Source of the DNA: Rhizaria sp. SCN 62-66
Taxonomy: Eukaryota
DNA length: 64,000 nucleotides
Assembly: GCA_001724265.1 (NCBI GenBank)
Contig: MEDY01000076.1
Coordinates: 1-64,000, forward strand
Direction of reading: 5' to 3'
This document shows positions 2,676 to 61,656 of the stretch, in pieces. The notes under the pieces are model-generated. The model was not told the origin of the DNA and did no database searches. It saw nothing but the letters and a program-made list of their open reading frames with translations. Within the stretch, counting starts at the first letter, position 1. Each line of letters begins with the position of its first letter. A program made the position numbers and the translations under genes.

Positions 2676-3356
2676 GATAAGAGTCGCCCCGCTGCAGTAC
2701 ATAGACGGTGAACGTTGTGAATTGTGTCAATCAAGAGAAAATGCGGAGGAAGAGGGTGGTGAGATTCGTTGAGCGTGATGCTAAGGGTCGATGCGACAGA
2801 AAGTGGTATAACACATCACGACCAAGTTTATTTGGCAATCTCAACTACCATAGTAGAGATATTCTCGGTGTATATCGTCACATATCTCTTTTCATGGCAT
2901 CTATCGTCTCAGACGCATGATATGGACTACGAAACTCTGTGCATTTTCGTCCGATGACCACGCTGTCGTCGCAGACCGCAACCAGGCGTTTTTTTGCGAA
3001 CCGCCGCCAAACGACCAAACCGCGTGAAAGTTGAGGTTGGGGGGAGGAGAGGATAGTATCACGTCCTGTTCTCTATTCCCTCCAGAGAGAATAGCGGTTC
3101 AACAATGTGCTCTAAATGAAGAGTGCATTTTCAATATATAGAGCTTAGTCTTTCTACTCCTGGCGAATGGCAATGCTTTCAATATCTTGCGTAAACTTTC
3201 CCATTTGTCATGACCAGCACCACTACGTCCTTCGTTTCATTCAGTCTCACTTCTGATCTACAACATTGATCCCGACAACAATAGCGCTTACAAGCGTACC
3301 TTACACAAGACTTCCTACCTTAGCAGACACTTTCTGTGTCTTAACAGACCAAGACA

Positions 3357-36982: not shown

Positions 36983-38862
36983 ATGTCTTCGACTGCTTCA
37001 GCGGCAGCCGCGCGGGCAGACGACATCTGGTACGTTCCTTCTTCCCCACAGTCCTGACTTCTTCAAATTGTGTTCTCAATCCCATATTCTCCACATCTAC
37101 ATAAATTCCTTTGAGAAAACACACTTTACGAGCGCATCTCGATCTTACTTGGGTTTTGTCTCTGTAAGCGCTTACATTTTCCTTTAACGGACATGTTTTG
37201 TGTTGTCTTGTTGCTTGCTTGCTTGCTGCAGGGGTGAGGAGGATGAGAACAACCTCACGAACCAGATCAACGGCCTCAGCAACGCCCAGCTTCAGTCGCG
37301 CACGGCGATGTACAAGACCAACATCGGCGTGATGCGGTACGAGATCGAGAAGCTGCGCTACGACAAGCAGCAAGTCGAGGCCGACCTCAAGGACAACCAA
37401 GAGAAGGTTAAGATGCACAAGCAGCTGCCTTATCTCGTCGCCAACGTCGTTGAGGTACGCCCCACTCTATTCAAACAAATAACAGTTAAACACATTTATT
37501 CTCTATTTCCAAACTTTTAGTTTCGATCTTCGATCTTCTTTGCTTGCAACGGTCGACTCCTGATGTCTCAATCCATGCATCGCTCGCTTGCTTACTGTTT
37601 GATCTTGTCTCTTTTGTTTGTTATTAGATCCTTGACCTCGAGCCCGAGGCCGAGGACGACGGTGCTGCCGTTGACGTCAACGCCCAGCGCAACGACAAGT
37701 GCGTTGTCATCAAGACATCTTCCCGTCAGGTATGTTCACTACTCAAGCTCTCACAACTCGCAACGAACATTAGCTTACGAGTTTGAAGAGTCGGTATCTC
37801 GGCGATATCGAGAATTTTTCTATTACGACTTCACTTTGACTTATAGATCACTAGTATCATATATTTTTTTTGAAACTATGTAACTCACTCATTCGTATCT
37901 ATCTATACCTCTCATTTTGCCAATCTCAGACCGTGTTCCTGCCCGTGGTGGGCCTCGTGTCCCCCGACACCCTGCGCCCCTCAGACTTGGTCGGCGTCAA
38001 CAAGGACTCGTACCTGATCCTCGACTCGCTGCCCGCCGAGTACGACGCGCGCGTCAAGACGATGGAGGTCGAGGAGAAGCCCACCGAGGACTACCTCGAC
38101 ATCGGCGGACTGGACAAGCAGATTGAGGAGCTCAAGGAGGCCGTCGTGTACCCGATGACGCACAAGCACCTCTACGACGCCGTCGGCATCCGCCCGCCTA
38201 AGGGCGTGCTGCTTTACGGCCCCCCCGGCACCGGAAAGACGATGCTCGCCCGTGCGTGTGCCGCCAAGACCAACGCGTGCTTCCTTAAGATCTCGGCGCC
38301 GCAGCTTGTGCAGATGTACATTGGTGACGGCAGCAAGATGGTCCGCGACGCATTCGCGCTCGCCAAGGAGAAGGCGCCCGCCATCGTGTTCATCGACGAG
38401 CTGGACGCCATCGGCACGAAGCGGTTCGACAGCGACAAGTCCGGCGACCGCGAGGTGCAGCGCACGATGCTGGAGCTGCTGAACCAGCTCGATGGCTTCG
38501 CGAGCGACGACCGCATCAAGGTAATCGCGGCGACCAACCGACCCGACATCCTGGACCCCGCGCTGCTGCGGTCTGGCCGGCTGGACCGCAAAGTGGAGTT
38601 CCCGATGCCCGACGAGGACGGCCGCGGCAAGATCCTCAAGATTCACTCGTCACGCATGCTCGTCGATAAGGACAACGTCAACTTCGAAGAGCTGGCGCGG
38701 TCCACCGAAGACTTCAACGGCGCACAGCTTAAGGCCGTGTGCGTTGAGGCCGGCATGATCGCGCTGCGCAGGGACGCCGCGATGCTGACCCACGAGGACT
38801 TCGTGCAGGGCATCCAGGAGGTCGCCGCCAAGAAGAAGGTCTCGCTCCAGTACTACGCCTAA
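36983..38862 (+). CDS. RPT5: 26S proteasome AAA-ATPase RPT5 (PSMC3); exons 36983-37029, 37232-37454, 37628-37729, 37930-38862
   Basis: Motifs [71 protein letters not shown], and C-terminal LQYYA (HbYX). Stop is TAA. Confidence 0.97.
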
Positions 38863-39724
38863 GTACTTATCGTGGAGTCCTTACATCTGATTCCTTACAC
38901 CATCGACGCACAAGGTCGCCAGTCTAAGTGGTGGGTGACGCTGTGGTAGTGGTGATGATGCGTGCGATCAAGATCAGGATCAAGTAACATAGTCAACAGA
39001 AGAAAAATGAAGATATGTGTTTATAGTGTACGATATGAGTACAAAAGAGTTGTTTATTAGATAATAATTCGATGTGAACATGATTTATGCAACAAAAAGA
39101 CATTTGAAAAAAACAATATTAATACAAATCGAAACATAGTTACAGAGACATAGTTAAATAGTGATGTCTATTGTTTCAAACACCAACATGCAAGCCAGGC
39201 GTAGATGCGACATGGTTCTTGTTATCGGAAACATTTTCTGCCGCATTGAGTTTACTTGCGGTATGTTACGGACATTTAATTGTCTGTTGTGAGAATTAAT
39301 GCGGTGCTGAAACACTGGAGGACAGTTTATTCAAAGATAAGTAGCACAATAGAGAAGTACGTGGGCAACAATAATCATGGTTCACAGAGCAAACCTAGAC
39401 AGCAGTGATCGATCACACAGGCCACCCACTTCATGGGAGCAAAAACGCGTCTCACAGCTCATTGTGCGCAGAGTCATTGCTGTTTTGATACGCGTTTGAG
39501 CGCTTGCACCCACTCTTGGTGAAGATAACGCCCGCGACGCAGTTGTGCACATTTGAGTAAAGCTGAGACAAGCTTTAAACTCTCGCGTCGAACTTGTGCG
39601 TTGCACTTGCCAAGTCTCCCACCAACTTCGCATTCTGTCATCATAAATAGTCGCTTTCTTATCAGGCCGTCCGGTGGGTTTGAAGCTCATGATATAAAAA
39701 AGCAACATTGCTGCCGTTGCGCAC

Positions 39725-40666
39725 TCACAGGTCGCTTTGCACCGACGACGAGTCGCCGGTCTGGTAAGCCCCCGAGCGCTTGCAGCCGCCCTTGGTGAAC
39801 AAGACACCGGCCACGCAGTTGTCCTTAAGCGCGAGCCAGACGGCCTTGTTGGGGCAGGCCTCGCGGCCGAGCGAAAGCCCGTTGCGCTTCCAGTTCCACA
39901 CGCAGCCGGCGACGACGTAGACAAAGACGGCGACGAAGAACAGAATGAGGAAGATGGAGCCGCCCGAGAGGCCCCCGTCACCGTCGTCGTCGCCGCCGCC
40001 GCCCAGGCAGCCCGCTGGGTGGTCGACGGTGAAGATGATGCGCATGACGTCGTCCGCGTCATACTCGCGGCTCGACACGGGCGTGCCCGCCTTCTTAGCG
40101 CAGTTGACGTTGACTTGGAGGCGCGTGTCGTCGATAAACTTGTCCACGGCGTTGCGGAACTCGAGCTGCACGCCCGCCGCCGTCGTCGCGGCCATGTAGA
40201 TGTCCGCGTCGGAGCGCCAACGTGCGGCCGAGAGGAAATAGGCCTGTTTCTCGGTCACGACGCAGAATGCGGCCTAGTCGTTCTAGCAGCGCGCGACGGG
40301 GGCAGCGACGCCGCAGAACTTGTAGTAGAGCTGCAGCGACGAGGCGGCCGGCAGCGGAACCATCGCAACGTCCTGCGCAAAGGCCTGCAGGTTGAAGGTA
40401 TCGCCTGTTCAGGTGGTGAAGATGTGCGTACGAACAATAGAGCAAGGAATTGATGAGGGGAGGCGAAAAGCAAAGGAGGATGGTAGGGTTCTTATGCAGG
40501 GATACAAAGTAGATCCAAGATAGAGACAAAGCGGGATACAAATTAAGCGCATATGATATGTACCGTGCGTAGTTGTAACGCTGCACTTGTTCTTGGCGGC
40601 GACTAGGGTGGAGGAGAGCGCGAGCAGCAGCACGAGTAGTGCTGAGCGGAGGACGCCGGATTGCAT
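39725..40666 (-). CDS. Mannose-6-phosphate-receptor/ATG27-like type I membrane protein, paralog A (~260 aa); exons 40666-40564, 40404-39725; two in-frame TAG codons (40285-40283, 40276-40274)
   Basis: Signal peptide, Cys-containing luminal domain, transmembrane GLSGGSIFLILFFVAVFVYVVAGCVWN and cytosolic GREACPN..W. Colinear with paralog B across both TAGs, with the same intron position and phase. Stop is TGA. Confidence 0.8.
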
Positions 40667-41333
40667 TCTATACAGGGGATATACGACAAGCGCAGAGTTT
40701 CATAAAAATTCGTGATATATAGAATGACAAGTATTGGTATTTTAACATCACCAACAAGTTATTAAACGAGATAATGTTCATATAAGCCTTGAAGGCGTGT
40801 GAGAGGCGATGAAGTGTGAGGGGCTGACGAGCGACGTGCCCAATGTGCGAGAGATGCTACAGGGCAAGAAATACAATGTCGCAGAATTGATAATTAAGAA
40901 AACAAGACAAATACACATGGATCGTTGATAACAAAGTACTTTCACGCGACTTTGTTGAAGCGTTACATGGCGAGTCAATTGCGAAGATCGACGCGATGGA
41001 GTGGTGCCAAAAGGCTCAAATCAGCCACAAACCGCGACAAAACGCGCAAATGACGCACTTCATAGAACAAGATGAACTTTGACAACAGTGAATCTAGAGT
41101 ATAAAACCAAAGTGATTGTTTATATTGTTTTCTAATACTAAGTAACATGAAGTCTGTCCAACATATACGCTGAATTACCTCACAAATATCTGTAGGTTGA
41201 CACCCCTTTCAAGTCGTCACATTCAACACAAGGACGGATCTAGAGTCATCCAAACAACTCGCACAGAAAGCAGGGCTATCCTTGATCACACAAAAGACCT
41301 AAGAGAATATAAAGACACCACATATAACCCATT

Positions 41334-42300
41334 TCAGAGCTCATTGTGGCCGGTGTCGTTGCTGCTCGTGTGGTACGTGCCACTGCGCTTGCAGCCGTTG
41401 CGGGTGAACATGACTCCCGCCACACAGTTATCCCTCAGCTTGCACCACATCTCACGGTTGGGACAGGCTTCCCGGCCCAATGCAAGCCCGTTCCTGCGCC
41501 AATTGATGCAGCAGCCAGCGACAATGTACGCTAGGATGAGCGATGTGAAGACGATCAGGAAGATGGAGCCACCAGAGAGGCCCGACTCTGCGCTGACTTT
41601 GCACCCCGCAGGGCTATCAATGGTGAAGTAAACGTTTATCTTGTCACTCGTCGCGCTTGACTCGCGGTGCGCCACGGGTGATCCGGCCGTTTCAGCACAG
41701 TTCACGACGACATGCATGTATACGTCGTCGAACAGCGTATCCAAAGCGTTGTGAAACTCAACATGAACGCCAGTTGCGGTCGTTTCCGCCATGAAGACAT
41801 CGTCCTTACGGCGCCAGCGCGCGGCGGTAAGCTGGTACTCCCCGTCGTCGCCGGAGAGCAGACAGAACGCGGCCTCGGCCGACTGGCACTGCGGGTTAGC
41901 TGTGACGGTGCCACAGAACATCCCATGTAGAGTCAGCGACAAGGTGTCTTTGACTGGTGTGACAGTGGCGCTTTGCGCAAGAACACTCAAGTCGAAGGTG
42001 TGCCCTACAGTTGGGTACGTGGCAGTGCAGTAACACGCGGATTCATGGCGCTTAAGAATGAGATATCTTGTAAATTGTATGTTCAACTTTACTTTTAGGT
42101 TTGCGCGCGCGTGATGAAATCGAAGATAAGGACCACATCAAAGAAGTTTAAGAGTACGAGGGCGTAACATCACATAATTCACCAAAATCTATCGTAAAGG
42201 TACCTTGAATAGTGTTCACACTGCAGGATGCACTTACTGTGGCTCTACTCGCAATACAAGAGAGTATCACGAGCGCCACAGCAAGCACGGCAGCACGCAT
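41334..42300 (-). CDS. Mannose-6-phosphate-receptor/ATG27-like type I membrane protein, paralog B (~255 aa); exons 42300-42204, 42004-41334
   Basis: Signal peptide MRAAVLAVALVILSCIASRA, then CSVNTIQ|GHTFDL, transmembrane GLSGGSIFLIVFTSLILAYIVAGC and GREACPNREMWCKLRDNCVAGVMFT. Stop is TGA. Confidence 0.82.
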
Positions 42301-42976
42301 GCTGAACCTAAAAAGGCAGATTTACATAATGGTTTAATGAGGTGTAGACATAGGGGTGAAGTAAGTTGAATAAAGATTAGGTTTGCATGCGGCAGACTCC
42401 GTTTCTTTGACTGAGGGAAACGCTGCTTTGCTGGCCGTCGTATGATTTGAGTGTCGATATCATCTGCTTGTCTCCTTCGCAGCAAGAAGCAAAGAGTCAG
42501 GACAGCAACCTTAGTAGAGGCTGGAGGAAAAGCCGCCACATTGAGATGGTTATACGATCAGATTGACAATTTTTACTGAACGATGACTCTATGTCATGTG
42601 GCTATGCCGAGATACAGCTCATTTTGTGAGTTGCTATTGGCGATCTGCGAGCAGAGCTTCTTGACTCTACAGAGTTCGCGTTGCCCTACACCGCATTGCA
42701 CTCAGCAAGCTGTATAATTAAGAGGTCAAACACACAACTTGCGCATTATTCCTGACATAGGCTCTGTAGTGCCGTTGACGGAACTCCCACTTCGTTCTAT
42801 CAAGAGTTTCTCATCGTTCAGCTCATCACCCACGAAACTGCCGCTGCCCCGCTTTTGCTTTCTATACTTCGCAACACTTACAAGCTTGTGCATTCAACGC
42901 AATTTTCCTTGCTTAATTTGTCCCCGCAGTGGGTTTAGCTTATTAGCAGGTTGGCATAGGCGTTATCTGGCGTACA

Positions 42977-45900
42977 ATGGACGCCCCCTCGTCTCTCTTT
43001 ATCGCTCCCGCCCCCTCGACCGCCTCGGTCTTGGCCGCCCACGCTGCGCCTTTCTCCGCGGCCCCGTCGGTCCCGCTGCCGCCGCCGCTGTCTCCACGCT
43101 ACGGCAAGGGCGCGGCCAACACGGAGGCCGTGTCGTCGCGCACTAACGCGCGCTACGCTGACGTCTTTGCCCGCACTGCAACGCACTCGCACTCGCCCTC
43201 ACACTCTAGCTCTAGCTTCAACTCTAACTCTAGCTCTGGTGCCGTCGGCGCTGGAAGCAGCAGTACGGGGACGTTGCAGCATAGCAATAGTACGCTGTCG
43301 CTGCCACGCATATTGAAACCGCCATCAGTAGTCGCAGTTGCTACAACAACGGCAACTACTTCTACTGCGTCATCGCCCAATGCGACTGTAACAAGCGCAG
43401 GTGCAGGAGCAGTAGGAGGCGCGGGCTCTGGAGGAAGCACAGCGACTGTGGCTGCCGTGTTGGCGGCCCAGGCTAGCCCGCGGCGCAATCCCAAAAGCAA
43501 TGCTATCGTCAATACTGGCATCAACTGCAGCAACAACGCTGCTGTTACTGCGACTGCAGCGACAACTGATTCTGTTGTCACCTCCAGCGCAAGCAGTGCT
43601 CCTGCGACAGCAGCTGCAACTAACAACAGTGTGGCAACGCCTGCGAAACCCTCTTTCCGCGTTCTGAGCAACAAGTCTGCAGTCGCAGCGGTAGAAGCAG
43701 CAGACGCTTACAGTCTCACGACGACCGCAACAGCGGGCACTGCGCTCAACGGAGGTCCCTACAACGTCAGCGAGGGGAAGCGCGATGTAAGTGGGCTGGG
43801 GTCACGGTTCGTTCGTTTCCACCACAACTCGCTGCCACCGTGCGACACGAGCCTTAGCAAGAGCAACACCGCTAGTCACACAAATGCACACAAGAACAAC
43901 GCAAGCGCAGCACATGCTCGCAGCAGCGGCGATGCGCCAAAAGCAGCTTCTGAGAGCGCTCCGGCCGAGGGCAAACATAATCCTCATACTGCAGCTCCTG
44001 AAGCTCCGAGTGCAGCTCAAAGTACTCAATCTAGTAACACTGCGATCGCAAACCCTTTTGCTTCGGCTGCTGCTGCTGAGACCAACCATGCATCTGACAA
44101 CGTTGCTCCTGCTGCAGCGTGCGGGAACACATCCGTCCCAAGCCCAGTTGCGGCCGCGAACGCAACCCCAGCTCATAGCTCTAGCTCTAGCTCTGGCTCT
44201 AGCTCTAACTCTAGTTCCAGCTCTAGCTCTAACTCTCGCTCTAGCTCTAGCTCTTGCTCGAGCTTGAGCTCTAACCTGAGCAAGTCCTCTGGCTCTGGCT
44301 TGAGCTCTAGCCCCAAGGCAGTGGCGGTTGCGAGCATTAGCTCGAGCACTGCTCCCGTCGCTGCAATGTCTCACGAGCAGCTTGTCTCCGAAGTCACTTA
44401 TCTCCGGGCAGCAGTCGCCGCCGCCGCTGCCGCGACAACAGGATTATCACCTGCAAACGCAACCTCCGCCGCTGCCGCCGCCGCTGCTGCTGCTGCCGCT
44501 TCTGCTGCCGAGGCCGAGCTCGAGCTGATCATCCTCCGTCGCCTCACCTCTAAGGGGGCGCTTAAATCTGCCAGTAACAGCAAGTCCCACTCCGCCACCG
44601 ACGGCGCAACTGACGGAGACGGTGAGGCCGATAACGCCGTCCTGGTGGCCGCACTCACCGCGCGCTGCGACGCGCTGACTGAGGCCGCGGCCGCGCAGCA
44701 CGCGCGCCTCGCCCAGACCGGGGGCCAGCTCGCCACAGAGCGCGCGCGCGCTGAGGCGGTGACGCGGGAGCTGGCCGCGGCTCTTACCCGCGCCGAGGGC
44801 CTTACAGCCGCGCTGGCGGCGGTCCGGCGGCAGCGGGAGGCGCAGCACCGCGCGCTAGAGACCGCCCGGGGCGACATCGCGGCCGTCTCGGCCCGGGCCA
44901 CGCGCGCGACACACGTGCTTACGCTGACGCAGGCCAAGGAGGCCGAGGCCGAGCAGTCGGCCGCCGCCGCGACCGCCGCCGCCGCCGCCGCGGCCGCGGG
45001 CGGGGGCGCGGCCGCAGCGCGGGCGGAGGAGGCCGAGGCACGCGTGGCGGCTCTGGAGCAGCGCCTCGCAGACTCGGAGGATGCGGCGGCGGCACAGAGG
45101 CAGCGTGCGGCCGCGGCCGAGGCGCGCGCGGACGACGCCGAGGCCGGCGCGCGGTCGCAGAAAGCGCTGGTGGCGGCCGCGGCGGCGCGCGCGCGGGCGG
45201 CCGAGGCCGAGACTGGCCAGTTTCGGGCGCTGGTGGGCGTGCAGGAGCGGGAGCGCGAGGCCGAGTGCAAGGCGCACTCTGCGGAGGCGGCGGCGCTCGC
45301 GGCCAAGGCCGGCAAGGCTGAGCAGGAGCGCGCGGCCGCGGTCAAGCTGTCCGAGACGGCTGTTGCGGACGCGAGCCGGGCTCTTGCCAACGCGGCGGCG
45401 GCCGAGGCTGCTCGTGCGCAGTTGCAGCAGGAGCTCGAGGACGCCGTTGCCGCCGCCAATGCCCACGAGACTGAGCTTTTGCAGCAGCTCGCAGCGAGTA
45501 AGGGCCGGGAAAAGGCGTTGACCGCCGCGAACGAGCAGCTTCAGGCGAAGCTGGCGAGCGCAGAGGACGCCGTCGCCGCCGCGACCAAGGCCCGCACTGC
45601 CGCCGACATCACCATCGCAGAGCTGACTCTAGACCTGCGCAAGTTAGGCCGCGAGCGGTCGCAGCTTGAATCGAGGCTTGAGAACGCCGTCGCCGCCGCC
45701 GCCGCCTCGGCTGCCGAGACGGCCCGCACCCAGGACGCGTTGGGCGCCGCCCGCGGCGAGGGCGCAGCAGCGCGCGCGGCGCTGGAGCAGTGCGGGCGCG
45801 AGCTGCGGACCGCGCAGACCGAGGCCGGGGCCGAAAAAAGGCGCGCAGAGCGGCTCGCGCGCGACGCCGTCGAGTCCGCGCGCGCCGTCGACGTCGCGCG

Positions 45901-47036
45901 CGCGGAGGCGCAGTCGCACAAGGCCGCCGCGGCTGCACTGGAGACGGCGAAGGGGAAGCTCGAGGAGCGCGTGGCGGCGGGCGCGGCGGCGCTGGAGAGT
46001 GCCAAGGCAACTGGGGCGGAGCGCGGCGCGCGCGCGGACCACTTGGCAAAGCAGGTGAACGAGCTCTCAGCGCTGCTGGCGCTGACACAGAGCGAGGCCA
46101 AGGAGGCGCGTCTGGCCGCCGCCGAGGCGCGCGTCAAGGCCGAGAGCGCGCGCATTGCGGCCGCGTCTGGTTCAAGCGGCAGCTCGAGCCGCCGTGGCAC
46201 CGGCGAGAGGGAGGCCGCCGCCGCCGCCGCCGCTGCGTCCAGGGCCGCGGAGGCCGAGGTGGTGTCACTGCGGTCCGCCGTGGCGGCCGAGACGGCGCGC
46301 GCCGCGGCCGCCGAGGCCGAGAATGACGACACGCGGGCGCGGCTGGCGGCCGCCGAAGATCGGGCCGCCTCCGCGGCCACGGCCGCCGCTGCAGAGGCTA
46401 GTCGGCTCGGCTCAGCGCTCGCGCACAGCGAGGCCGCGCTAGCGGCGGCCAAGGCGACGCTCGCGGAGGCGGCGGCACTCGTTACGACCGCGGAGGCCGC
46501 CGCCGCTGAGGCCGACGCGCGCGCGCAGGACGCGCTGCGCAAAGAGGCGGCGACCGCGGCGCGGCACGAGCAGTGCGACCCCACGATCTTCTACCTTGAC
46601 GACCGCGTGCGGGGTCTCGAGGCACGGCTGGCGCGCGAGCAGGGCAGCGAGCGCGTGCTGGGACAGGCGACTGTGCGCGCCGTCGTGGCGCAGCGCGAGC
46701 AGGACGCCGCCGAGCGCGCGCGACAGGAGGCGAGCGATAAGCTAAGCCGTGCTGAGACGGCGGCCGCGAAGGCAATCGCGGAGCTCGAGGCGACGCTGAG
46801 GCGCGCGCTGAGGGCCGAGGCCGAGGCGGAGGTCGCCAAGGCCGCGTTGCAGACTGCTGCGACGACCGCGTCATCGTCCACGGTCGCATCAGCGACGACA
46901 ACAACAACGAGCGCGGGCGCTGCTGGTAGCGGTGGCAAGAAGGGCAAGACTGGCAGCATGAGCAAGAAACCAGCTCTCTTGAACGCTAGTAGTGCTGCGG
47001 CTGCGGTCGCAACGCCCGCACCATCGAGCCCGGATG

Positions 47037-47071
<35 letters not shown>

Positions 47072-48618
47072 GCTGATGACGAAGAGACGGACGCCTTCGA
47101 CCGGGCGGCTACTTTGCCGAACACGCACTCTCAACACAACAATCCTCCTAATGCGGCCAGTCTCTACGGTGCGGGCGCTGGAACACAAGGCGGCTTGACT
47201 TCCGCCGAGGCGGGCTTGAGTGTCACGACCGACTTCGAGCGTCAGCAACGGTTCCAGATCGTCGTGTCGCCGTTCACGCCTTCGTCCACGTCGTCCTCTG
47301 CAGCACTGTCGCGTCCAACGTCGTCGACGTCGCACACGTACACTGGCCACAGCAGCAGCGCCGCCAATAACGCTAACTCGAGCACAACGAGCGGCAGCAG
47401 CAACAGCGCCGTCGTCGCCCCCGCGGCCTCGCCTGCCTTCGCCGTCGCAGCACCCATCCTCGTGTCGCCCACCGGCACTCCCGGCCTGACCGCGACAGGA
47501 GCAGCCACAACAGCAACAGCAGCAGCTGCAACGGCAGCTACAGCGACAGCCACGAAGGCGCCGGCCAAGGTGAGCTTCACCACGACACCTGCTTCTGCCC
47601 GGTCGTCAGCCACAACGACGGCGACGGCGGCGGCGACACGGGCGCCGCAGTCCGCGACCAGGTCGCGCGGCGCTAGCAGGACCAGCGGCGGCGCCAAGGC
47701 CAAGGACGGCGCGGGGAGCTCCTCTCCAGCTGAGACTGGGGCCGAGGCGGCGGTGGAGGCGGAGCTCGTGACCGTGGGCGCGGGGGCGTGGCAAGCAATG
47801 CAGAGCGACTGCGCGGCGGCGACGGCGCAGGTACTTTCACTCACGCTGCGGCTGGAGGCGCTCGAGTCGGAGCTGGGCGAGAGTAAGCGCAGCATGGAGC
47901 GCGCGCGCATCAGCTACCAGATCTCGATGGAGAAGGCTACCAGAGGGGCCATGGCTGCGGCGTCGCCGGCGGCGGCCGCGGCGGCGGTCGCACTCGCGGT
48001 CTCCGGCAGCAACAGCAGCGCCAGGAACAACTACAACACGAGCAGCAACAGCGACAATACCGCTGTCACCAGCAGCAGCAGCAAGAGCAGCGGTGACGCG
48101 AGACACAAGAGCAACAACAGCAGTCCTACTGCTAGTGGGACGGCAACGCTGATGATGATTCGCGCCGACTCTCCCAGCGCTCACGCCGCGACGACTACTG
48201 CGGCTGGTGGCACGGCTACTGCGGCTGCTGCTGCTGGTAGTGAGAGCTCTGTGGTTGATACTGCTGCTGTTAATCCTGCTCCTGTGAGCCAAAACAGCGA
48301 GGTTAGGCCGCCGCCGACGCTGATTGGCGAGGAGAGGGAAGCGATCATTGTTGAGCTTGCAAAGAAAGTACGCCGAAATATTCACATTCAAACTTTATGT
48401 CACTGAGAATTTATGCTGAATCCAATGTTTTTCTTGTCTCATCCTGAACTATTCTTTGCGTTGACTGATTTTTGTTACCCTTTGTGTAGAACGCTGCGTG
48501 CCACGCGTTGGAGCAAATGGTTGCTTCTTTGCGCGCAGCTCTTGCTGCTGCGACTCTCACTGTGCCCCAGCTGCCGTCTGGCCCCAGTATCTTAGCACAT
48601 GCAACAACAGAGCAGTAA
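42977..48618 (+). CDS. Hypothetical ~1,839-aa protein with a long Ala/Glu/Arg-rich coiled coil flanked by Ser/Ala/Thr/Asn low-complexity regions; exons 42977-48367, 48490-48618
   Basis: Long ORF with coding-type codon bias and a heptad-like A/E/R/L composition at ~44640-46850. A GTACGC...TGTAG intron leads to a final exon NAACHALEQMVASLRAAL..., ending in TAA. Confidence 0.75.
44176..44310 (+). repeat. Imperfect (TCTAGC)n hexamer repeat encoding poly-Ser inside the coiled-coil gene; a shorter copy lies at ~43204-43236
   Basis: tagctctagctctagctctggctctagctctaactctag... seen directly. Confidence 0.8.
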
Positions 48619-49331
48619 GACCGCATATGCTGTTTGCGACCGGTCGCGAGTCATGCTATGACTGTCACAACAGATCAGGTGCTCTGAATATCAAGGCGAG
48701 ATATCCCGATGAAAACGCTTTTAAATAGTACAATTTTTAAATATAGTATATTAAGCTTTGCAATTCTTCCAATAAACTCGGTTGACCTTTGAATGCACGA
48801 TTGGTTGGCCTCATGAACCATGTTTTTGCGCGCCTACCACGTGTGTGTGGTGGGGCCCTGCTCACGGTCACTTGTCTCGCCTCCGACCAAGCAAAGCAAC
48901 GAAGGTTTGAGCAGATTTTCGGAGTGTCGATAAGTCGTTGAAGTCACGTCTTCGTGAGATTTTAGACTCAGAATCTGAAATGCAGTTTGCGGAGCTTTAT
49001 GACAAGTTTTTTGTCACGTGGAAGTTTGTCCCGCTTCCCCGTGTGACCACGCTCGAGCTTCTCTTCTGGCTTTCCGGTACGTCACCGATCTCTCCTTCTC
49101 TCTGCCCTGCATTGTCAGCATCTTCCGTCATTGCCCTACTTTGGCCATGGCACTACGTCACTGCAATTGCACTTGACAACATCATACTACTTTTTCATCT
49201 TCATTACACTTTGTCTCCATGCTCATCGTCCTTGTTCTTTGCAATCGCTTTCATTTTCCCGCGCCTACAACCCCGCCCCGCCTCGACCCTACTCCCACGC
49301 CCACTTAGTCACCTTCCTGGCCCTGCTGACC

Positions 49332-50640
49332 ATGCTGGCCAAGGTCTCGACCTTCTTCGCGGCGATCCACTCGAAGCTGCTGCTGTACATCGACGGCGCG
49401 ATCCAGATGGTCGCCAGCCAGGACTCGAAGTGGAAGCAGCCCCCGGACCACACCGCGAGCAACCTTCAGAAGCAGGGCTCCAAGCGCATCGTCTTCATCC
49501 GCCACGGCGAGTCGGCCTGGAACGAGGTCTTCAACCGCGGCTTTGGCCTCAGTTTTATCCCGCGCATCTTCCGCGCCATGCTCCGCGAAGGCACGCTCTT
49601 CCCCACGCCCTACTCGATCTTCTTTGACACCCCGCTTAACGTCGAGGGCATCGACCAGGCGCTCGAGATCGCGTCGTTCCTCGAAGCCGCCCCCGGGTCC
49701 TCCGACGCCACCGTCGCCGAGGTCATCTCCTGCCTGCGCGGCGACACCGCAGAGAACTCGCTCATCGTCTCGTCCAACCTGCGCCGTGCGCTGGCCACCG
49801 TGGCCATCGGCCTCTGGCGCCGCCTCGAGAAGACCAGCGAGCGCATCGTCATCAACTCCATGTGCCAGGTATGTCGATAAACTTTATTCTGCATATAAGA
49901 AGGTCGAGTATCATTTATTTTATGTTGTATCTCATTTTGACCTTTAACTCACATATTTTTGTTGTTAAATCCTTGTTTTTGTCTTTTCATCACAGGAGAT
50001 TTCCCGCAACATCGACTGCATGGCGTCTGCCGAGCCCGGCGCGATTCCCCACATGGAGGGCCCCGACTGCGGCGAGGCGGCCAAGCGCATGGCGCACCCG
50101 AAGCGCGACATGGGCGCCTTTGTCCCCGAGGCCATCTTCAACCCCGCGCTCAACGGCGGCCAGAAGCCCCTCAACGAGCGCGGCGTCGAGCGCCTTCAGG
50201 TACGCCCCAAAACCATTGTCGCACGAGAGCGAGCAATAAGTTATTTGCACTAATTCTGAGCTAAAGTGTATAATTTGTGTTTGTATCCTTCAATTCTTAT
50301 TTTCAGCTCTCTATACTAACATTTGACGTGCTTTATCTTTGCTATTGTTTCCATATAGGCATTCGCCGAGTGGGTTTTCACCCGCCCCGAGCAGACGATC
50401 ATCGTCGGCGGCCACTCCCTCTGGTTCCGCAACTTCTTCAAGGCCTTCTTGGCGCGCTCCGACGACCACGTGTCCAAGGCGCAGAAGATGGTCAACGGCG
50501 GCATCGTCGCACTGACCCTCAATGTCGGCGCCGGCCAGGACCGCAGCGCGGCGCACTGGATCGAGCCCGGCTCTATCACCGTCGTCCACGGCGGGTTTGA
50601 GGCCCCCAAGGGCAAGGGCAGCAAGAACAAGCGCGTCTAA
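49332..50640 (+). CDS. Histidine phosphatase (phosphoglycerate mutase-like) family protein; exons 49332-49868, 49996-50199, 50359-50640
   Basis: Motifs IVFIRHGESAWN (RHG), DTPLNVEG, VSSNLRRALAT, Q|EISRNID and IIVGGHSLWFR. Stop is TAA. Confidence 0.9.
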
Positions 50641-51151: not shown

Positions 51152-54100
51152 ATGCGGCGGCCACATGCAAGACAAGTTGAGCTACAGATTCCTGCTTGGT
51201 CGGTCTGGCGTGGGAATAACCGCTTTTACTGCGGCGGCCGCATCATTGCAGGACCTTCACTGCGACGACTCGTGGTGACAGTGAGCCTCTTACTCCTCAC
51301 CATGCTGCTTGCAGTCACTGTTTTGACTACACAACTTAAACCGTCATCTGCTCTTGCAACAACAGCGATTATTCTTTTTAGCGTTAGCTCTATTGCGAGT
51401 TGCATCGCGCTGTACGCCTCCAATCCCGGTGTATTACCCAGAGCTGCACTGCTCAACGCGTACGTTCACTGCCGCGGTCGTGCAAAGGCAAACATCGCAC
51501 TTGAGACAATGTCAAACCGTCTTGGCTTGCAGCATGCACTTCATTCTCTGAGCCTTTTCAACACGACTATGCGTCGTAATTTATATCCCAACAGCGTAAC
51601 CACGAGTCCGGCAACGGCTGTGACCGCGGCCGTAAGCGCGTTGAGCTCAATCGAGCGTATTGATGACAGCACAACAAATGCTGCGATTGAGACTGCGCCA
51701 GGTGACAATCCTGCTGCGCAAAGTAACGTCGAGCCAAGCAACTCATCTCTGATGGGCGTCGGGTTACTTCAGCATCAGCTGCGGCAAAAGCTTCTCAAAC
51801 ACAACCGAACTGAAGGCAAAGCCAGTAGTGACAGTGCCAGTTGCAAGGCAAAGTTGGACTCGTTGTGTTTGGTTGCAGATGAGTCACACCTGGGGCCGCG
51901 AGTGCCTCCGTGGGCTCTGGGGCTTGTCGCAGACCTTGGCACCGCTGTGGCGCCGCCGCTGCTACACACGGTGTCACTTCAAGAACTCAAACGAGAGAAC
52001 GTGCAGGGGCTTGAAGAGACTCCCACCCCAGACAACAACCCACACGCACAACAAAAGCACATTGGTTCGCGACTTCATGAGCTAAACCAAGAGCACGACC
52101 GGTTGCAGATGCAAGAGCGAGAGCAGTGCAGTCACGTTCTCGCAGCCACGTCGACACTTCGTGAGGCTGTCACGAACGCCGTCGTCACTTTGGAGCTCTG
52201 CCTGGGTGAGAAACGGGTGCCCGAGTGCGAGTGGTGCTGGGACTGCTGTATACTGAGGCCGCGGGTAACGTCGGCGCACTGCAGTAACTGCGGCAACTGT
52301 GTCGAGCACTGGGACCATCGTACGTTGACACGATATCTTTATGAACAAATGAGCATGAACGATTGTGACTTTGTTGGCGCTAGGCGCAATCAACTACATC
52401 CGCAAATGTATCACCGAATTGATTGACTCATATCGCATTTACTCTGTTTGTCATTGTCGCTCACAGACTGCGGCTGGGTCGGTAACTGTGTCGGTGCAGG
52501 CAACTATCGCTTGTTCCTAACCACAATTGCACTCAACGTTTGCAACTTAATCACACTCTTTGCAGTAAGCTTAGCGTACTTAAAGCGCGTATCATCGCTA
52601 TTTCCGACTTTGATAGACGCGTTTAATGCGCACTCGTTTGGCTTCTCCCTCGCAGTTCTCTTGGTGCCTATTTGCACTGCTGTTGCAACGGTGTTCTTAC
52701 ATACGTTTCTTTTGCAAGTAAAGGCTGTCGGACCAGAGCAAGGCGCAACAACAATGCTGCTACAGCGCGGAAGAAGTGCACTATTTCCAGGACTTAAACC
52801 AAGTCAAGCAACGTCGATGATTCGCGATGTTGAGGCTGCTACTGCGACGGTTGCTGCTGCGGCGGCGGTGACTCGTGACGATGGAGGTTACGGACAGCGG
52901 CGTGCAATGACACAGCATAACTACGCATATGACTACGATTACGAGTTTAGCAGCGCGGTTAATGATGCGACTGTCAGCGACAGTGTTGTCAGTGCTAGCG
53001 CTGAGTGCTACAGTGAAGAGGAGGACTTCGGTTACGATGGCGGAAACGCTATGACTGGCTTTGCGGTGTATCGGCAACGGCAGCAACAGCTGTGGGAAGC
53101 TAGGGTTAGGTGCTATCAACAGTTGTTTTGCCCATCTCCGACTTAGTCCTCTTACGGGGAGGATAATAATATCATAGCAACTTCAGTCGATACGGACACG
53201 AAAGGTGGAAACACACATACAGCCAAAGAGGAACAACAACACGCCAGCGCGGTTGACAGCCGCGCCGAGTTAGAGTCTTGTACGAGCGGTAGTACAAGTG
53301 CTCACACTAGCTGTGTAGACAACGTTGTGTCGCATATTTCCTACGCACACAAGCCACAGCCAAACTCTTCGATGAAATCGCAGCAACAGTTGCAAACAAG
53401 TCCGATCCAGTCACACGCGTAGATACAGCAGTGTTCTAAATCACTGTCAACAAGTGATATCACATTGTCGGAGAGTAAGTTGCAGATGTCGGAGTCATTT
53501 TCACTCCACTCACAACACAGTGTAAAACAGGAGAATCAGTGCCACAACAGTGCTCGTCTAAAATCACCAAACTTAGAGTCACTTCCGCGTTCACAGTCTC
53601 AGCATCATAAGAGAAGCAAATCAAATGCGTGTAAAGATGTGCAAAGTGGTCTTATGAGCAAAAGTACTCAGCAAGGTTCTATATTTACACTTAATCCATC
53701 TCCTGCATCGGTGATCCCATCGCAGTCAAGGGGTGCTTACAATGAACCAAACGCACTTGGTGTTAGCCACAGTCTAAGCGTGCCGGAATTATCTGATCTA
53801 AGCGGTGCGTTTTCAATCCCTCTCTCACTACCTTCATTCAACAGTAGTCGGCTGTCCTTTAGCGCGGACACAAACACGCTATCCGGTCACAGTAGTGATG
53901 ATTGTGGCAATAGCGTTATGCATGCTGGTGAGAATGAGACGGACAAGCTGAGCTTTGCGTCGCTGTCTTCTCTGACAATGCCACCTCCGCCCAGCAACAC
54001 CTACGCCACACAACGTTCGGCCCGTCAGCAAAGATGTTTGCAACAGCGACGTCTAACGCCAGAAAGCAACGTAGCGTGCGTAATAAACACAAGATGCAGT

Positions 54101-56074
54101 GATACCCAAGTCGCACATACTTCTCGTAAGCATGCAAAACATCCAGCCACAAACACGGCAGAATCTAAAGCAATTGCTGCAGCTCTGGCTCTAGCAAAAT
54201 TAGAAGCTGATGCTCAAGCTGTTGCAAAAGCCAAGGCTGACGCGGAGGCCAAGGCTAGGGCTGATGCAGAGGCTCGGGCCAGGGCAAAGGTGGCCGCGGC
54301 CGCGCTTGGTGCAGCAATCCGCGCTGCGGCCGCCGTACGCACCGCCGCGACCGCCGCTGTTGCAGCCGAGATCTCCGGTTTGCAGGCGTCGCTGGCGGCA
54401 CCGCGACTGCGGCGCGAGACCCGGCGCGCACAGTCGCTGCTGATGCGCTTTGCAGGCGGCTGCGCGGGGGCGTTGGCTCTGTTTGCTGGCTGCATGCGCG
54501 CGTGGGGCCGGGGGCCAGTGCTGGGCCCGTTGAGGTGTGAGGCGGGACATCGCGCTGCTGTAGCTGTAAAGCTGGCTAAGGCGGGTGAGGACGGCGGACT
54601 TGTTGAGCTGCTGCAAAGCGGGTTCAAAGTTAAGACTGACAGCAACTGCCAACAAAGTGACATTGATCATGAGGATGATGCTAGTGGAGTTGTCGTTGAC
54701 CATGATGTGTTTGTTGATTGGATTAACGGATCTGCAACACAGACCCTTGTCAACGGTGCGGCTCAACAGCTGCATTCATCTCAAGTCGCGAAATATGAGG
54801 AGCAACAGCGGCAGCTCGAAAGTCACGCAAGGTCTACGGCTGCTGGTCGTCTACTGAGGAGGCGCAAGCAACAACAGCAGAATCATCATATTCAACAAGC
54901 AGCAGCCATTTCTAACGCGACACGAATTGGTCGGCTGTTTTAGCGTTTGGACACAGCGGATGTGAGAGCGACAGAGCCGATATCAGTGGCACCACTGTCA
55001 CGACGTGACACCTTGCCTGTTCCTATAGCTGCAACAGTGACGCGTGCAACACCGTTAAACCAGAATCTAACAGTGATGGACGTCATCCTGCCGCGCAATC
55101 TAAACAATATCAACGCACACGCAAATATGCACTTGCACCGACAGCAAACAGCAAGGCAGCGCACCAACACAAGCTTAAGCAATGGTAGCTCGTGGTGTTG
55201 TAGGTCTCGGCGACACGGATATGAGACAGACGAAGTTGCTGTTACATTCTTTGACGTTTTCACCGCACCTGTTAGCATTGCGCGTTTACGCGAGTTTGAA
55301 TACGCCGAGCGAACCATGCAGAGTGCTATGTACTACTCGACTCTCAACAGCGAGAACCCTATTAACGACAGCAGTGACCACACTGAAAGTGATCGCGACG
55401 ATGACGACATTGGTCATGGCCCTGGCAATGCAAATGCTACCCGAAAGCAGCATGGCGTCAACCCAACAGCTCCTGCGGGCACCACTACAAGTGCAGCGAC
55501 TGTGGAGCTGAGTGAGAGCAGCAGTGAAGTTGATAGTGAGCTCAGGGCAGAGGCACTGCGCATTGCACGAGCTCAGTTCCATAGTCGCTACAGCAAACAG
55601 ACAACACAGCACACAGCTGCACTGACAGCTGTCGGTGTCGACTCACGTAATATCAAAGCTAATGAAGGTGGTCTTAGGCATGATAGTACGATTCAAAACA
55701 GCAACGGTCATGTTGCTCAGCATGCACACATGCGCACACACACCCGTGAGCGTGACAAACGGGATGCAAAGCCTCGTCGCCAGACAGCGACTCAGCAACG
55801 CGATCGTCATAGCACTGCGTTCGGCGACACCGACAGTGATGACGATAACGCAGGGCAGCAAACACGCGCGAATCAGAGCAGCAATCGCCGCGGACGTGCC
55901 GCTGCCAGCGGTGCCAATCATAGTCGTCGCGGTGACCGCGAGCGCACTCGCAGTAGGCACCGTGACTCGGCCACCGTTGTTGCCCCTCATCGCAGTCGTG
56001 AGCAGCAACAACGACCTCGAAACAAAAGCAAACACTCTTCCACCGAAGCAGTTTGGTTTGATGAAGACAATTAA
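51152..56074 (+). CDS. DHHC palmitoyltransferase with a long loop insertion and long C-terminal tail; exons 51152-52319, 52467-56074; three in-frame TAG codons (53144, 53420, 54941); ~1,591 aa if TAG is sense
   Basis: N-terminal WRGNNRFYCGGRIIAGP, two transmembrane segments, NPGVLPR, then WCWDCCILRP...AHCSNCGNCVEHWDH|HCGWVGNCVGAGNYRLF with the DHHC motif split by a GTACGT...CACAG intron. The frame has no TAA or TGA until the TAA at 56072-56074. The DHHC call is secure; the 3' extent depends on TAG being read through. Confidence 0.8.
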
Positions 56075-59286: not shown

Positions 59287-61656
59287 ATGGGCAACTACTA
59301 TTCGTGCACGAATGTGCCACCTCACACTAAACAGTGCTTGGCATGTCTCCCCTGGCAGGTACGTCTAAAGCGCATCATAATCTCAACCATTCTAAACCGG
59401 ACTAATATGCCAGTATATATCACCAACTACCGCTTTAAGTGTATCCGCGAATTCGCGTCCAGATCTTGTATTGGCTCTGCAACTCATCTTTCATTTCTTC
59501 ACCCTACCACACCCCACGTTCGTTTTTCTTTCGTCGTTGCTTGCTTCCCACGCACATTTTCGTCCTCTTCAACGCAGCACTGTCGCATGTGCTACTACGA
59601 CTGCGACCCTGCTGCTTTTCCCACGGACCCAACCGCCTGCGCCGGCAAAACAATCGCCTACTGCGTCCTCAGCGCCTAGAAGATGAGCACCTACTTTTTC
59701 GTTCTGATCATAGTTTTTTCGGTCCTCGCGCTCTCGCTGTGCGTGCTGGCCTACCGCCGCCGCAAGCACGCCTTCCTGACGCCCCTCACGGCGCACGCGG
59801 CGTCGCAGCGTGGCTGTTTCTGCCCCATCTGCGGCACGGCGCAGCTGTCTCTCATCCACGCGGCCGTCTTCCGCTGTGGCAACCAGGCCTGCGGGCAGCA
59901 CTTGCGCGCCCGCACCGCCCTGCACAACTCGTACACAGCCGCCGCGACGGCCCGCAACACGACGCGGAGCAACGACAACGCTGCTGCGGGCGCTCGCGGG
60001 CGTGGTCGGGGCAGCAGGGGCGGTATTTCTGTGCGGAAGCAGACGGTTCGACGCGACGAGAATGACCTGGCCAGTGACGACGACAACAACAACGACGAAG
60101 ACGACGACGATGATGACGAAGATAAGAAGAATAACGGCGACCACTGTGCCGGTGACAGCCTGGCTGCACATAACAATCGGAATCGGCGTGCCAAATGCAA
60201 GAGCCACGTTATGCGCAACAACAGGTTTGATTATTCCGACGAGGCTGCTGCTGACGGCGATAGCACCCACGGCGGTACTGGTGACGGGATGTTCAATGAT
60301 TTCTATGAACCGTCGATGTTTCGTCTTGTTTCCGTTAATTCACGCAGCAGCAGCAACAGCATGAGCAGCAGCAACAGTAAAAGCAGTAGCAAAAACAGTA
60401 CCTACAGCAACTCATCTAACTCCAAGAGGAAAAGCAGCAAGAACAACACAACAAAGACCAGTGTGAATAGCAATAGCAAGAAGTCAGCAGCAGCAACCCC
60501 GACTGCTGATCCCCCTAAGGATAAAACCCCTGCGGTTAAAGTTAAGCCGCCGCGCGGCGCCATCAGCTGGGACGATAGCGGGTCCGCGGTCGTGGCGTTC
60601 TTGACTGACTCCGCGACTGTTACGGTACCTGTGCCGAGCCAGGCGCAGGTTGCAGCGCAATATCGCCGATTCTACAACGGTAACAGCACCGCCGGTAAGC
60701 GTGGTGGGGGCAAAGCGAAGGCTGGGAGCAGCAACAAGGGTAAGAGCATTCAGTTTGCCGAGGAGGCTTTGGCTGAAGAGGAGGAAGCTGACGATTACGG
60801 CGACGACGACGACGACGATGATGATGATGATGATGAGTGTGCTCGTAAAAACAAGAGTATGGCTCGGAGGCATCGCAGTGGTGGCATTGATGATCATGGT
60901 AACCAAAACAATGACGAGGACAGTGCAAGTGTGAGCGTAAGCGTGACCGAAAGCAGGCGTCACTTGCTCAGCCCTCGCAACAACACTCACGACGACGACG
61001 ACGGCGGCGACGACGACGATGAACATGATGACCATGATGATGCGGATGGTAACGAAGAGTATAACGTAGAGTATTACCACAATGTTCACGGCAAGAACGG
61101 CTACGACATCAGGAGTCACAACGACGACGATGAGGACGAGGACGATGAGGACGAGGATGATGAGGACGAAAACGACGAGGACGAAGACGAGGACAACGGT
61201 GGCTTCTTTGGCAACGGCGGTATCTTTGGCTTAGGTGGCGGCCGCAATCCCCATCACCGCAGCCGCGACGACATCGATGCGAACTATAGCCATAGCGGCA
61301 GTAACAGTGACCATGTGACCAGCGACGACGAGGAGGGGGGCGCGTTCTCTAAGGGTGCCCAGGGGTACTTAGGCGGGTCGCTGCTGCCCCTGTATGCGTC
61401 GCGCGCTCGTGAGTACACTTACGCCACGCAGAACCAGCAAAACCACAACAACACCAACGACTACAATACCAACAACTGTAGCGTTGGGAGCAGCAACAGA
61501 GCCGATCGCAGTCGCAGGCAAAATAACAATAACCATCTCGCGAATAACAGCTTTGCGTACAGCAATAATAACTCGCATACCCAGAGCAATTCTAGCGCAA
61601 ATCAAGGAGTTAGTGGGACGCGTGTGCAAAGCAAGAAGAGCAGTCGCCGCCAGTGA
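59287..61656 (+). CDS. Hypothetical single-pass membrane protein (~716 aa): Cys-rich N-terminus, transmembrane helix, CxxC zinc-ribbon-like motif and Asp/Asn/Ser-rich tail; exons 59287-59358, 59578-61656; one in-frame TAG (59677-59679)
   Basis: ATG at 59287 and a CAG|GTACGT...ACGCAG intron. Coding-type codons run through ...YCVLSA*KMSTYFFVLIIVFSVLALSLCVLAYRRRK, followed by CPICG...FRCGNQACG. Stop is TGA. Confidence 0.7.

Follow-up and report, generated by a model that had tools for sequence, protein, structure and literature searches.

Very few changes of the nuclear genetic code are found outside ciliates, and fewer than ten lineages are reported to have a code in which UAG and UAA differ in meaning, as far as the accounts of Panek et al. 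(2017, PMC5304391) and McGowan et al. (2024, PMC11687900) go. According to the former, the fornicate Iotanema spirale (Fornicata) reads UAG as Gln and retains UAA and UGA as stops. The same account describes the rhizarian exLh (Sainouroidea, Cercozoa), in which UAG means Leu: 384 UAG codons were counted in 71 genes, UAG is the commonest Leu codon in the proteasome genes and stands at conserved Leu sites, and the 71 genes terminate in 56 UAA and 15 UGA codons. According to the latter, UAG encodes Gln in Hartmannula sinica, Trochilia petrani, and Protocruzia tuzeti, Leu in the TARA phyllopharyngean metagenome-assembled genomes, and Ser in the green alga Scotinosphaera; genes for suppressor tRNA(CUA) were identified in some of those assemblies but not in others. 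A further candidate is described here in a DNA stretch of 64,000 nucleotides (referred to below as the window), which comprises positions 1 to 64,000 of the metagenome contig MEDY01000076.1 (178,582 bases; Rhizaria sp. SCN 62-66, assembly GCA_001724265.1). In the window, in-frame TAG codons are located in one of two tandem genes of an ATG27/M6PR-like family (paralogs A and B), in a DHHC palmitoyltransferase gene, and probably in an orphan membrane protein gene. With a probability of roughly 0.7, judged from six codons and the stop usage of this one window, TAG is a rare sense codon (approximately 0.04% of codons), and termination is left to TAA and TGA.

About 16 genes were modelled from open reading frames (ORFs), Pfam matches, and GT..AG introns. 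They encode transketolase, a giant DUF3638 protein (approximately 8,580 codons), RPN6, Maf, ATP synthase g, Rpt5, paralogs A and B, a 1,819-codon ORF, a three-exon ORF, the DHHC palmitoyltransferase, a Sec1-family protein, the orphan membrane protein, L34e, and a GATase cut by the window end. The terminal stops of 14 gene models were seven TAA and seven TGA, with no TAG. Within the approximately 16,700 modelled codons, six in-frame TAGs were found in three of the genes: five are firm (two in paralog A and three in the DHHC gene) and one is probable (in the orphan gene). In none of these three genes is the frame shifted or interrupted by TAA or TGA, and all six TAGs are confined to loops, a disordered tail, and a linker, i.e., to unconstrained sites. 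Since TAG occurs inside three otherwise intact genes and never as a terminator, it is probably read as an amino acid.

The state predicted for the window resembles that of Iotanema spirale, as published, in that the change appears limited to UAG, with termination at UAA and UGA, a polar residue as the likely meaning, and a tRNA(CUA) as the expected mechanism. It differs in the presence of ATP synthase g, in an Rpt5 protein that groups with cercozoans, and in UAG being far rarer and of a meaning not yet established. With exLh, as described, the organism probably shares the supergroup, a sense UAG, and gene ends formed by UAA and UGA only (seven of each among the 14 here), whereas Rpt5 and RPN6 of the window lack TAG, and the columns aligned with TAG are polar, Leu scoring -5.8 on them. 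The TAG-free Rpt5 and RPN6 and the polar columns indicate a code state different from that of exLh and, if the organism is a cercozoan, likely an independent event. As in the ciliate and Scotinosphaera cases, UAG would be uncoupled from UAA, and the evidence comes from in-frame UAG in genomic or metagenomic data; those cases, however, were reported from whole assemblies with many UAG codons at conserved positions, in contrast to six codons in 64 kb. The window is also unlike ciliate genomes in its GC-rich genes, its canonical introns of 146-219 nt, and the length of its source contig. Literature searches yielded no description of such a code for any free-living cercozoan or activated-sludge protist. 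If true, this would be the second rhizarian case, with a different meaning, and the rarity of the codon would make the lineage a test bed for whether a stop is captured through codon disappearance, an ambiguous intermediate, or a release-factor change.

The features of the two tandem paralogs are as follows.

40564..40666, minus strand: paralog A exon 1, with the ATG, the signal peptide, and a split Gly codon at its end (direct reading)
40405..40563, minus strand: paralog A intron, 159 nt, GTACAT..AACAG, with the phase and position of the paralog B intron
39725..40404, minus strand: paralog A exon 2, with the ATG27/M6PR-like domain, a transmembrane helix, a tail, and a TGA stop
40283..40285, minus strand: first in-frame TAG of paralog A, at about residue 75 of a 260-aa protein, unchanged in contigs of other sequencing runs (X2, X3/X4, and X5)
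40274..40276, minus strand: second in-frame TAG of paralog A, unchanged in the other-run contigs
41334..42300, minus strand: paralog B (exon 1 at 42300-42204, intron, exon 2 at 42004-41334, TGA stop), with CAG and GAG at the two sites

On the minus strand, the segment 40340-40260 contains the codons TTC TGC GGC GTC GCT GCC CCC GTC GCG CGC TGC TAG AAC GAC TAG GCC GCA TTC TGC GTC GTG. With TAG taken as a residue, exon 2 is a 226-codon open frame closed by TGA. Paralog B is ungapped at both sites, where it reads FCGTVTANPQCQSAEAAFCLL, and in an alignment of seven sequences the two TAGs of paralog A fall opposite its Gln and Glu. Both proteins match Pfam ATG27 and Man-6-P_recep (PF09451 for paralog A, E 3e-09, 37.6 bits with a cutoff of 27; PF02157 for paralog B, E 9.7e-08). 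The invariant features of the family alignment are C32, C41, C49, C103, C134, and the helix start GLSGGSxFLI. In the seven-sequence alignment, the TAGs occupy a short variable loop between two invariant cysteines, after the first of them, and in an alignment of five family members paralog A retains 41 of the 41 invariant columns, on both sides of the TAGs. The preliminary description of this DNA had reported both TAGs in exon 2, an ungapped paralog B with Gln and Glu at the TAG sites, and an otherwise intact gene (signal peptide, intron, cysteines, and TGA); direct reading, the other-run contigs, and the alignments bear out each of these points.

Paralog A is the slower-evolving, conserved copy of the tandem pair. 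Its identity to three outgroup proteins is 46, 42, and 39%, versus 39, 34, and 34% for paralog B; its terminal branch is 0.41 versus 1.02, and its GC content at third codon positions (GC3) is 0.89-0.90, like that of the most biased genes of the window, versus 0.67. Were TAG read as a stop, the product would consist of the signal peptide and approximately 40 residues, so that the better-kept copy would be the null one. Frameshifts, mixed stop types, relaxed constraint, and loss of codon bias, the usual signs of a pseudogene, were found neither in paralog A nor in the DHHC tail; a very recent inactivation of either may have taken place. Directly downstream of paralog A, a 35-codon remnant of a third ATG27/M6PR-like copy (39455-39560, minus strand; ..NCVAGVIFTKSGCKRS..HNEL, TGA) was found, the tail of which is nearer to that of paralog B than to that of paralog A. 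The remnant records a past tandem duplication and decay at this locus.

The TAGs of paralog A were looked up in other public data. All or part of the window occurs in 20 public runs, four of which hold at least half of its sequence words, and runs X6-X20 hold small shares. Runs X2, X3, X4, and X5 were compared, in all cases as contigs and not as reads; the pieces of X3 and X4 are identical and may represent one data set. The X3/X4 contigs span 39823-40345, and a contig of X2, which belongs to another study (2025), spans 40236-41376, both with no differences. X5, a polyA metatranscriptome of activated sludge, has two contigs in this region (39621-40278 and 40265-40463), also with no differences, with both TAGs kept and no joint there. 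Identical letters at the TAGs were thus seen in samples of at least two studies from 2015-2025, which means that the paralog A TAGs are real in the DNA. Contigs of X5 were present over Rpt5 and paralog A and absent throughout approximately 2,350 bases that comprise intergenic DNA and paralog B. This coverage pattern suggests that paralog A is transcribed; exon 1 of paralog A is likewise without cover, and no conclusion on expression was drawn for it or for paralog B.

The second TAG-bearing gene encodes the DHHC palmitoyltransferase.

51152..52319, plus strand: DHHC palmitoyltransferase exon 1
52320..52466, plus strand: DHHC intron, 147 nt, GTACGT..CACAG, containing an in-frame TGA; its splicing restores the DH|HC motif
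52467..56074, plus strand: DHHC exon 2, PF01529, with a long low-complexity tail and a TAA stop, open save for three TAGs
53144..53146, plus strand: in-frame TAG in the DHHC tail
53420..53422, plus strand: in-frame TAG in the DHHC tail
54941..54943, plus strand: in-frame TAG in the DHHC tail

The frame of exon 2 (1,216 codons) contains three TAG, no TGA, and only the terminal TAA, and approximately 975 codons remain open 3' of the first TAG; each of the other five frames has 44-98 stops. The GC content of the 150 nt upstream of these TAGs is 0.49-0.54, versus 0.35-0.41 in introns, i.e., there is no intron-like dip. No frame-keeping GT..AG intron was found at the three TAGs, the only two upstream GT candidates both shifting the frame. 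In the protein collection, the ORF pieces that end at and follow the 54941 TAG were called identically on three contigs. A TGA at 52424 was considered as an in-frame stop and rejected, as it sits in the DHHC intron. In this gene (51152-56074), an intron interrupts the catalytic DH|HC motif, a low-complexity insert of approximately 270 aa precedes the domain, and there is a disordered tail of approximately 1,100 aa. Its GC3 is approximately 0.5, versus 0.86-0.9 in the adjoining genes.

The third gene encodes an orphan membrane protein.

59287..61656, plus strand: orphan membrane protein (exon 1 at 59287-59358, intron at 59359-59577, exon 2 at 59578-61656, TGA stop)
59677..59679, plus strand: probable in-frame TAG, in the linker between the Cys-rich N-terminal part and the transmembrane helix

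It starts with an ATG at 59287 and a 24-codon exon, followed by a canonical intron of 219 nt, 33 Cys-rich codons (GC3 0.79), the TAG at 59677, and the transmembrane helix. This TAG was counted as probable only, since translation may instead begin at an ATG two codons downstream.

Codon usage was modelled from 13,017 codons of the best-supported exons, free of any in-frame stop, and the model was then used to score the 30 codons before and after each stop triplet with flanks lacking the other two stops. Both flanks were coding-like (above 0.3) at 6 of 217 TAG, 1 of 159 TAA, and 1 of 807 TGA candidates; after removal of those antisense to known genes (the TAA, the TGA, and three TAG cases), the TAGs at 40283, 40274, and 59677 were left. 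The two TAGs of paralog A had the most coding-like flanks of all candidates of the three types. The DHHC TAGs were missed because of the different codon usage there (GC3 0.49). A stop-by-stop read-through ("bridged ORF") test returned 19 TAG, 12 TAA, and 28 TGA cases and was uninformative, since antisense and off-frames are long in GC-rich DNA. Several other TAGs were considered as coding and rejected: TAG 22495-22497 and the TAG before Rpt5 exon 2 are 3' splice sites (the former of a giant-gene intron), those in the L34e frame lie in the 5' leader and an intron, and the TAG in the Pex14 gene of the related locus L007 is an intron end. The frame 2735-4204 of the related locus L003, taken as a possible TAG-bearing gene, is antisense.

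The related loci were obtained by scanning metagenomes with the A/B family alignment, which gave 18 loci (L001-L018), the closest 45% identical; the source contig of the window was not among them. Their M6PR-like genes contain no TAG, and nine genes modelled on L001, L003, L004, L005, and L006 end in four TAA and five TGA codons, with no TAG. Locus L005, which also encodes a member of the ATG27/M6PR-like family (42% identical), carries a 637-codon MORN-repeat gene (1412-3325, plus strand, TAA stop) with an in-frame TAG at 1520-1522, inside the first repeat (YKGDWLDNK-TAG-HGFGVQVW). Six orthologs are collinear across this TAG and have K, H, or R at its column. The MORN gene is a fourth TAG-bearing gene, in a second organism, and it hints at a state common to more than one species; the tree does not fix how close that organism is to the organism of the window. 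The codon model, applied to the related loci, gave nothing above the threshold, the MORN TAG included. In addition, a scan of genome contigs with the Sec1 alignment gave no match, a scan of genome contigs with Rpt5 gave only archaeal PAN and bacterial AAA ATPases (at most 52% identity), and two scans of viral contigs gave nothing from the lineage of the window.

The aligned residues limit the possible meaning of TAG. The columns are Q, A, Q, T, S, S, R, I at the first TAG of paralog A, E, K, N, K, T, N, K, Q at the second, and K, K, H, H, R, K at the MORN TAG of L005. All three are variable columns of polar or basic character (Gln, Lys, Glu, Arg, and His), which points to a polar or basic residue. 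The crude mean BLOSUM62 score over the three columns is 4.4 for Lys, 2.6 for Arg, 2.5 for Gln, and 1.5 for Glu. When only the two columns of the window are scored, Lys and Gln are level at 1.88. Leu, with a score of -5.8, is disfavoured. By analogy with known changes, Gln is the most likely meaning a priori, being their usual outcome and one transition away from the dominant CAG (the giant gene has 135 CAG versus 13 CAA codons).

The placement of the organism relies on Rpt5. The best named matches of this protein are the cercozoans Paulinella micropora and Mataza sp. (81%), with amoebozoans next (77-79%). In a 45-row Rpt5 tree, the window protein falls into a group of 23 rows (SH-aLRT 89), which consists of Paulinella micropora, Mataza sp., and unnamed environmental sequences and is apart from Amoebozoa, plants, Eimeria, and an animal. 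The organism is therefore probably a cercozoan, a placement kept tentative because it comes from a single gene. A fornicate had been considered unlikely because ATP synthase g appeared to be encoded; the presence of the gene (PF04718, E 3.8e-07) bears this out, and the Rpt5 tree points to Cercozoa rather than Fornicata. The named relatives of the Sec1-family protein (Phalansterium and fungi) reach at most 25% identity.

If TAG is indeed a sense codon here, nuclear UAG would no longer be a terminator and would be translated as an amino acid, with UAA and UGA doing all the terminating. Such a code would involve a tRNA with the anticodon CUA, derived from the tRNA of a polar residue (Gln likeliest a priori, Lys or Glu possible), and an eRF1 no longer releasing at UAG. 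The rarity of UAG fits an early stage of codon capture. It is possible, although doubtful, that the window shows the very first phase in which a eukaryote nucleus captures a stop codon, among uncultured, GC-rich, cercozoan-like protists of wastewater systems that form a clade; UAG would there already be unused as a terminator and only starting to enter genes at unconstrained sites, in a state distinct from and independent of the UAG = Leu code of exLh.

The sense reading proposed in the preliminary description has gained the DHHC TAGs, the probable orphan TAG, the conserved state of paralog A, the MORN TAG of L005, and the lack of TAG terminators (0 of 14 in the window and 0 of 9 on the related contigs, a small sample), and the residue named there, Gln, is not established, as Lys ties with it. 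The contigs of at least two studies carry TAG, and the assembly error (CAG for TAG) considered there was not seen. Paralog A is unlikely to be a lone, untranscribed pseudogene, as TAGs are also present in the DHHC gene and probably the orphan gene, and it occurs in contigs of polyA RNA. As for retention of the TAGs in mature mRNA, the X5 contigs keep both, unedited and with no joint, but they are contigs only, one of which runs 59 nt into the intron.

A number of results weigh against a sense TAG. No in-frame TAG was found in the other approximately 13,000 well-supported codons (among them those of the giant gene, Rpt5, RPN6, transketolase, Sec1, and L34e), and the usage of TAG is far below that of any reassignment described in the accounts cited above. 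If TAG normally ends 20% of genes, its absence from 14 terminators has P ~0.04, which is only weakly significant; moreover, five of the nine stops on the related contigs come from one gene family and are not independent. The models of 42947-48406, 49047-50640, and the orphan gene rest on ORFs alone, and the TAG of the latter may lie in a 5' leader if translation starts at the ATG two codons after it. The 64-kb window contains no tRNA genes and no Rfam matches, no tRNA(CUA) was found in the 18 related loci (their single tRNA is a tRNA-Arg(CCG)), and eRF1 is not among the window genes. No amino acid could be established, because no TAG stands at a strongly conserved column. The X5 contigs contain intron sequence of Rpt5 (37800-37926) and of paralog A (40405-40463, 59 nt) and so may derive from pre-mRNA or partly from carried-over DNA.

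The main rival explanation, regarded as improbable, though less so than the remaining ones, keeps the standard code. Paralog A would be a young pseudogene or null allele, the DHHC protein would have been truncated recently at 53144 with neutral TAGs accumulating downstream, the orphan protein would start at the later ATG, and the MORN TAG of L005 would be a null allele. In a neutral nonsense model, TAG is the stop most easily reached by mutation in GC3-rich genes (the probability that a new stop is TAG is ~0.63 in paralog A and 0.72 in the giant gene, with ~0.44 in the DHHC tail), but from the values for the DHHC tail and paralog A, five of five firm stops would all be TAG with P ~0.03 only. 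Further coincidences would be needed, namely premature stops in two or three of about 16 genes, all of them TAG, together with no TAG among 14 terminators. Duplication and decay are on record at the locus in the third-copy remnant, and paralog B could compensate for the loss. The placement of the TAGs of paralog A, in one gene of a tandem pair with a decayed copy beside it, is like that in an ordinary unitary pseudogene or nonsense allele. Unlike in an ordinary pseudogene, however, the frames of all three genes are interrupted by no frameshift and by no stop type other than TAG, and the dead copy would be the slower-evolving, codon-optimised paralog that is present in polyA RNA contigs and apparently transcribed, rather than paralog B, which is not in them. 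Two nonsense hits three codons apart with all else unbroken would be odd for decay, the same letters persist in samples of two studies from 2015-2025, and the approximately 975 codons past the first DHHC TAG stay open while other frames hold 44-98 stops. The lack of TAG from approximately 13,000 codons of the best-supported genes and the ATG behind the orphan TAG remain in favour of the standard code.

According to a second and less probable explanation, TAG is nominally a stop that is weakly recognised, and readthrough by near-cognate tRNAs is tolerated at unconstrained sites, TAG being in an intermediate state, ambiguous or unassigned. This would account for the extreme rarity of the codon, its restriction to loops and disordered tails, and its avoidance as a terminator (0 of 14), which is expected in this case; the mixture of aligned residues (Q, K, E, R, and H) is also what near-cognate decoding by several tRNAs would yield. 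On the other hand, a tandem pair of TAGs in a codon-optimised gene would multiply the inefficiency, and the base following TAG at the six window sites (A, G, T, A, C, and A) reveals no common readthrough context. The present data do not really separate this explanation from clean reassignment. An artefact or processing event (assembly error, tiny intron, or UAG-to-CAG RNA editing) is very improbable: a frame-keeping 24-nt GT..AG stretch (GTCGCG..GACTAG) does span both TAGs of paralog A, but its removal would delete the invariant cysteine C41, the known introns here are AT-rich and 146-219 nt long, the DHHC TAGs have no frame-keeping intron candidates, and independent DNA and RNA contigs carry TAG with no differences and no joint.

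A practical consequence concerns annotation, as gene callers cut the proteins of this organism into pieces or shorten them at TAG. Such breaks are seen in the database entries for paralog A, for the DHHC tail, and for the MORN protein of L005, all of which start or end at the TAGs, the last of these beginning at the Met after the TAG.

Several other features of the window were recorded. Rpt5 (proteasome subunit 6A; 37233-38862, plus strand) has three exons; of its unnamed environmental relatives, one shares 96% identity and another, located on a contig of 228,670 bases, 88%. The Sec1-family gene (56418-58679, minus strand) has two exons and is very divergent, the closest unnamed relatives being 60, 52, and 47% identical. 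The giant gene (3345-29394, plus strand) comprises the exons 3345-21977, 22124-22330, and 22498-29394, separated by two introns, with DUF3638 as the sole Pfam match (E 5.5e-10), a GC3 of 0.86-0.89, and a frame free of TAG. The 1,819-codon ORF (42947-48406, plus strand) is a single exon without a Pfam match, with GC contents of 0.66, 0.65, and 0.73 by codon position, and is overlapped by several long antisense ORFs. The window as a whole is two-toned, with genes of 65-73% GC and introns and spacers of 35-48% GC. Its introns, 146-219 nt in length and AT-rich, have the ends GTAYGT..YAG.

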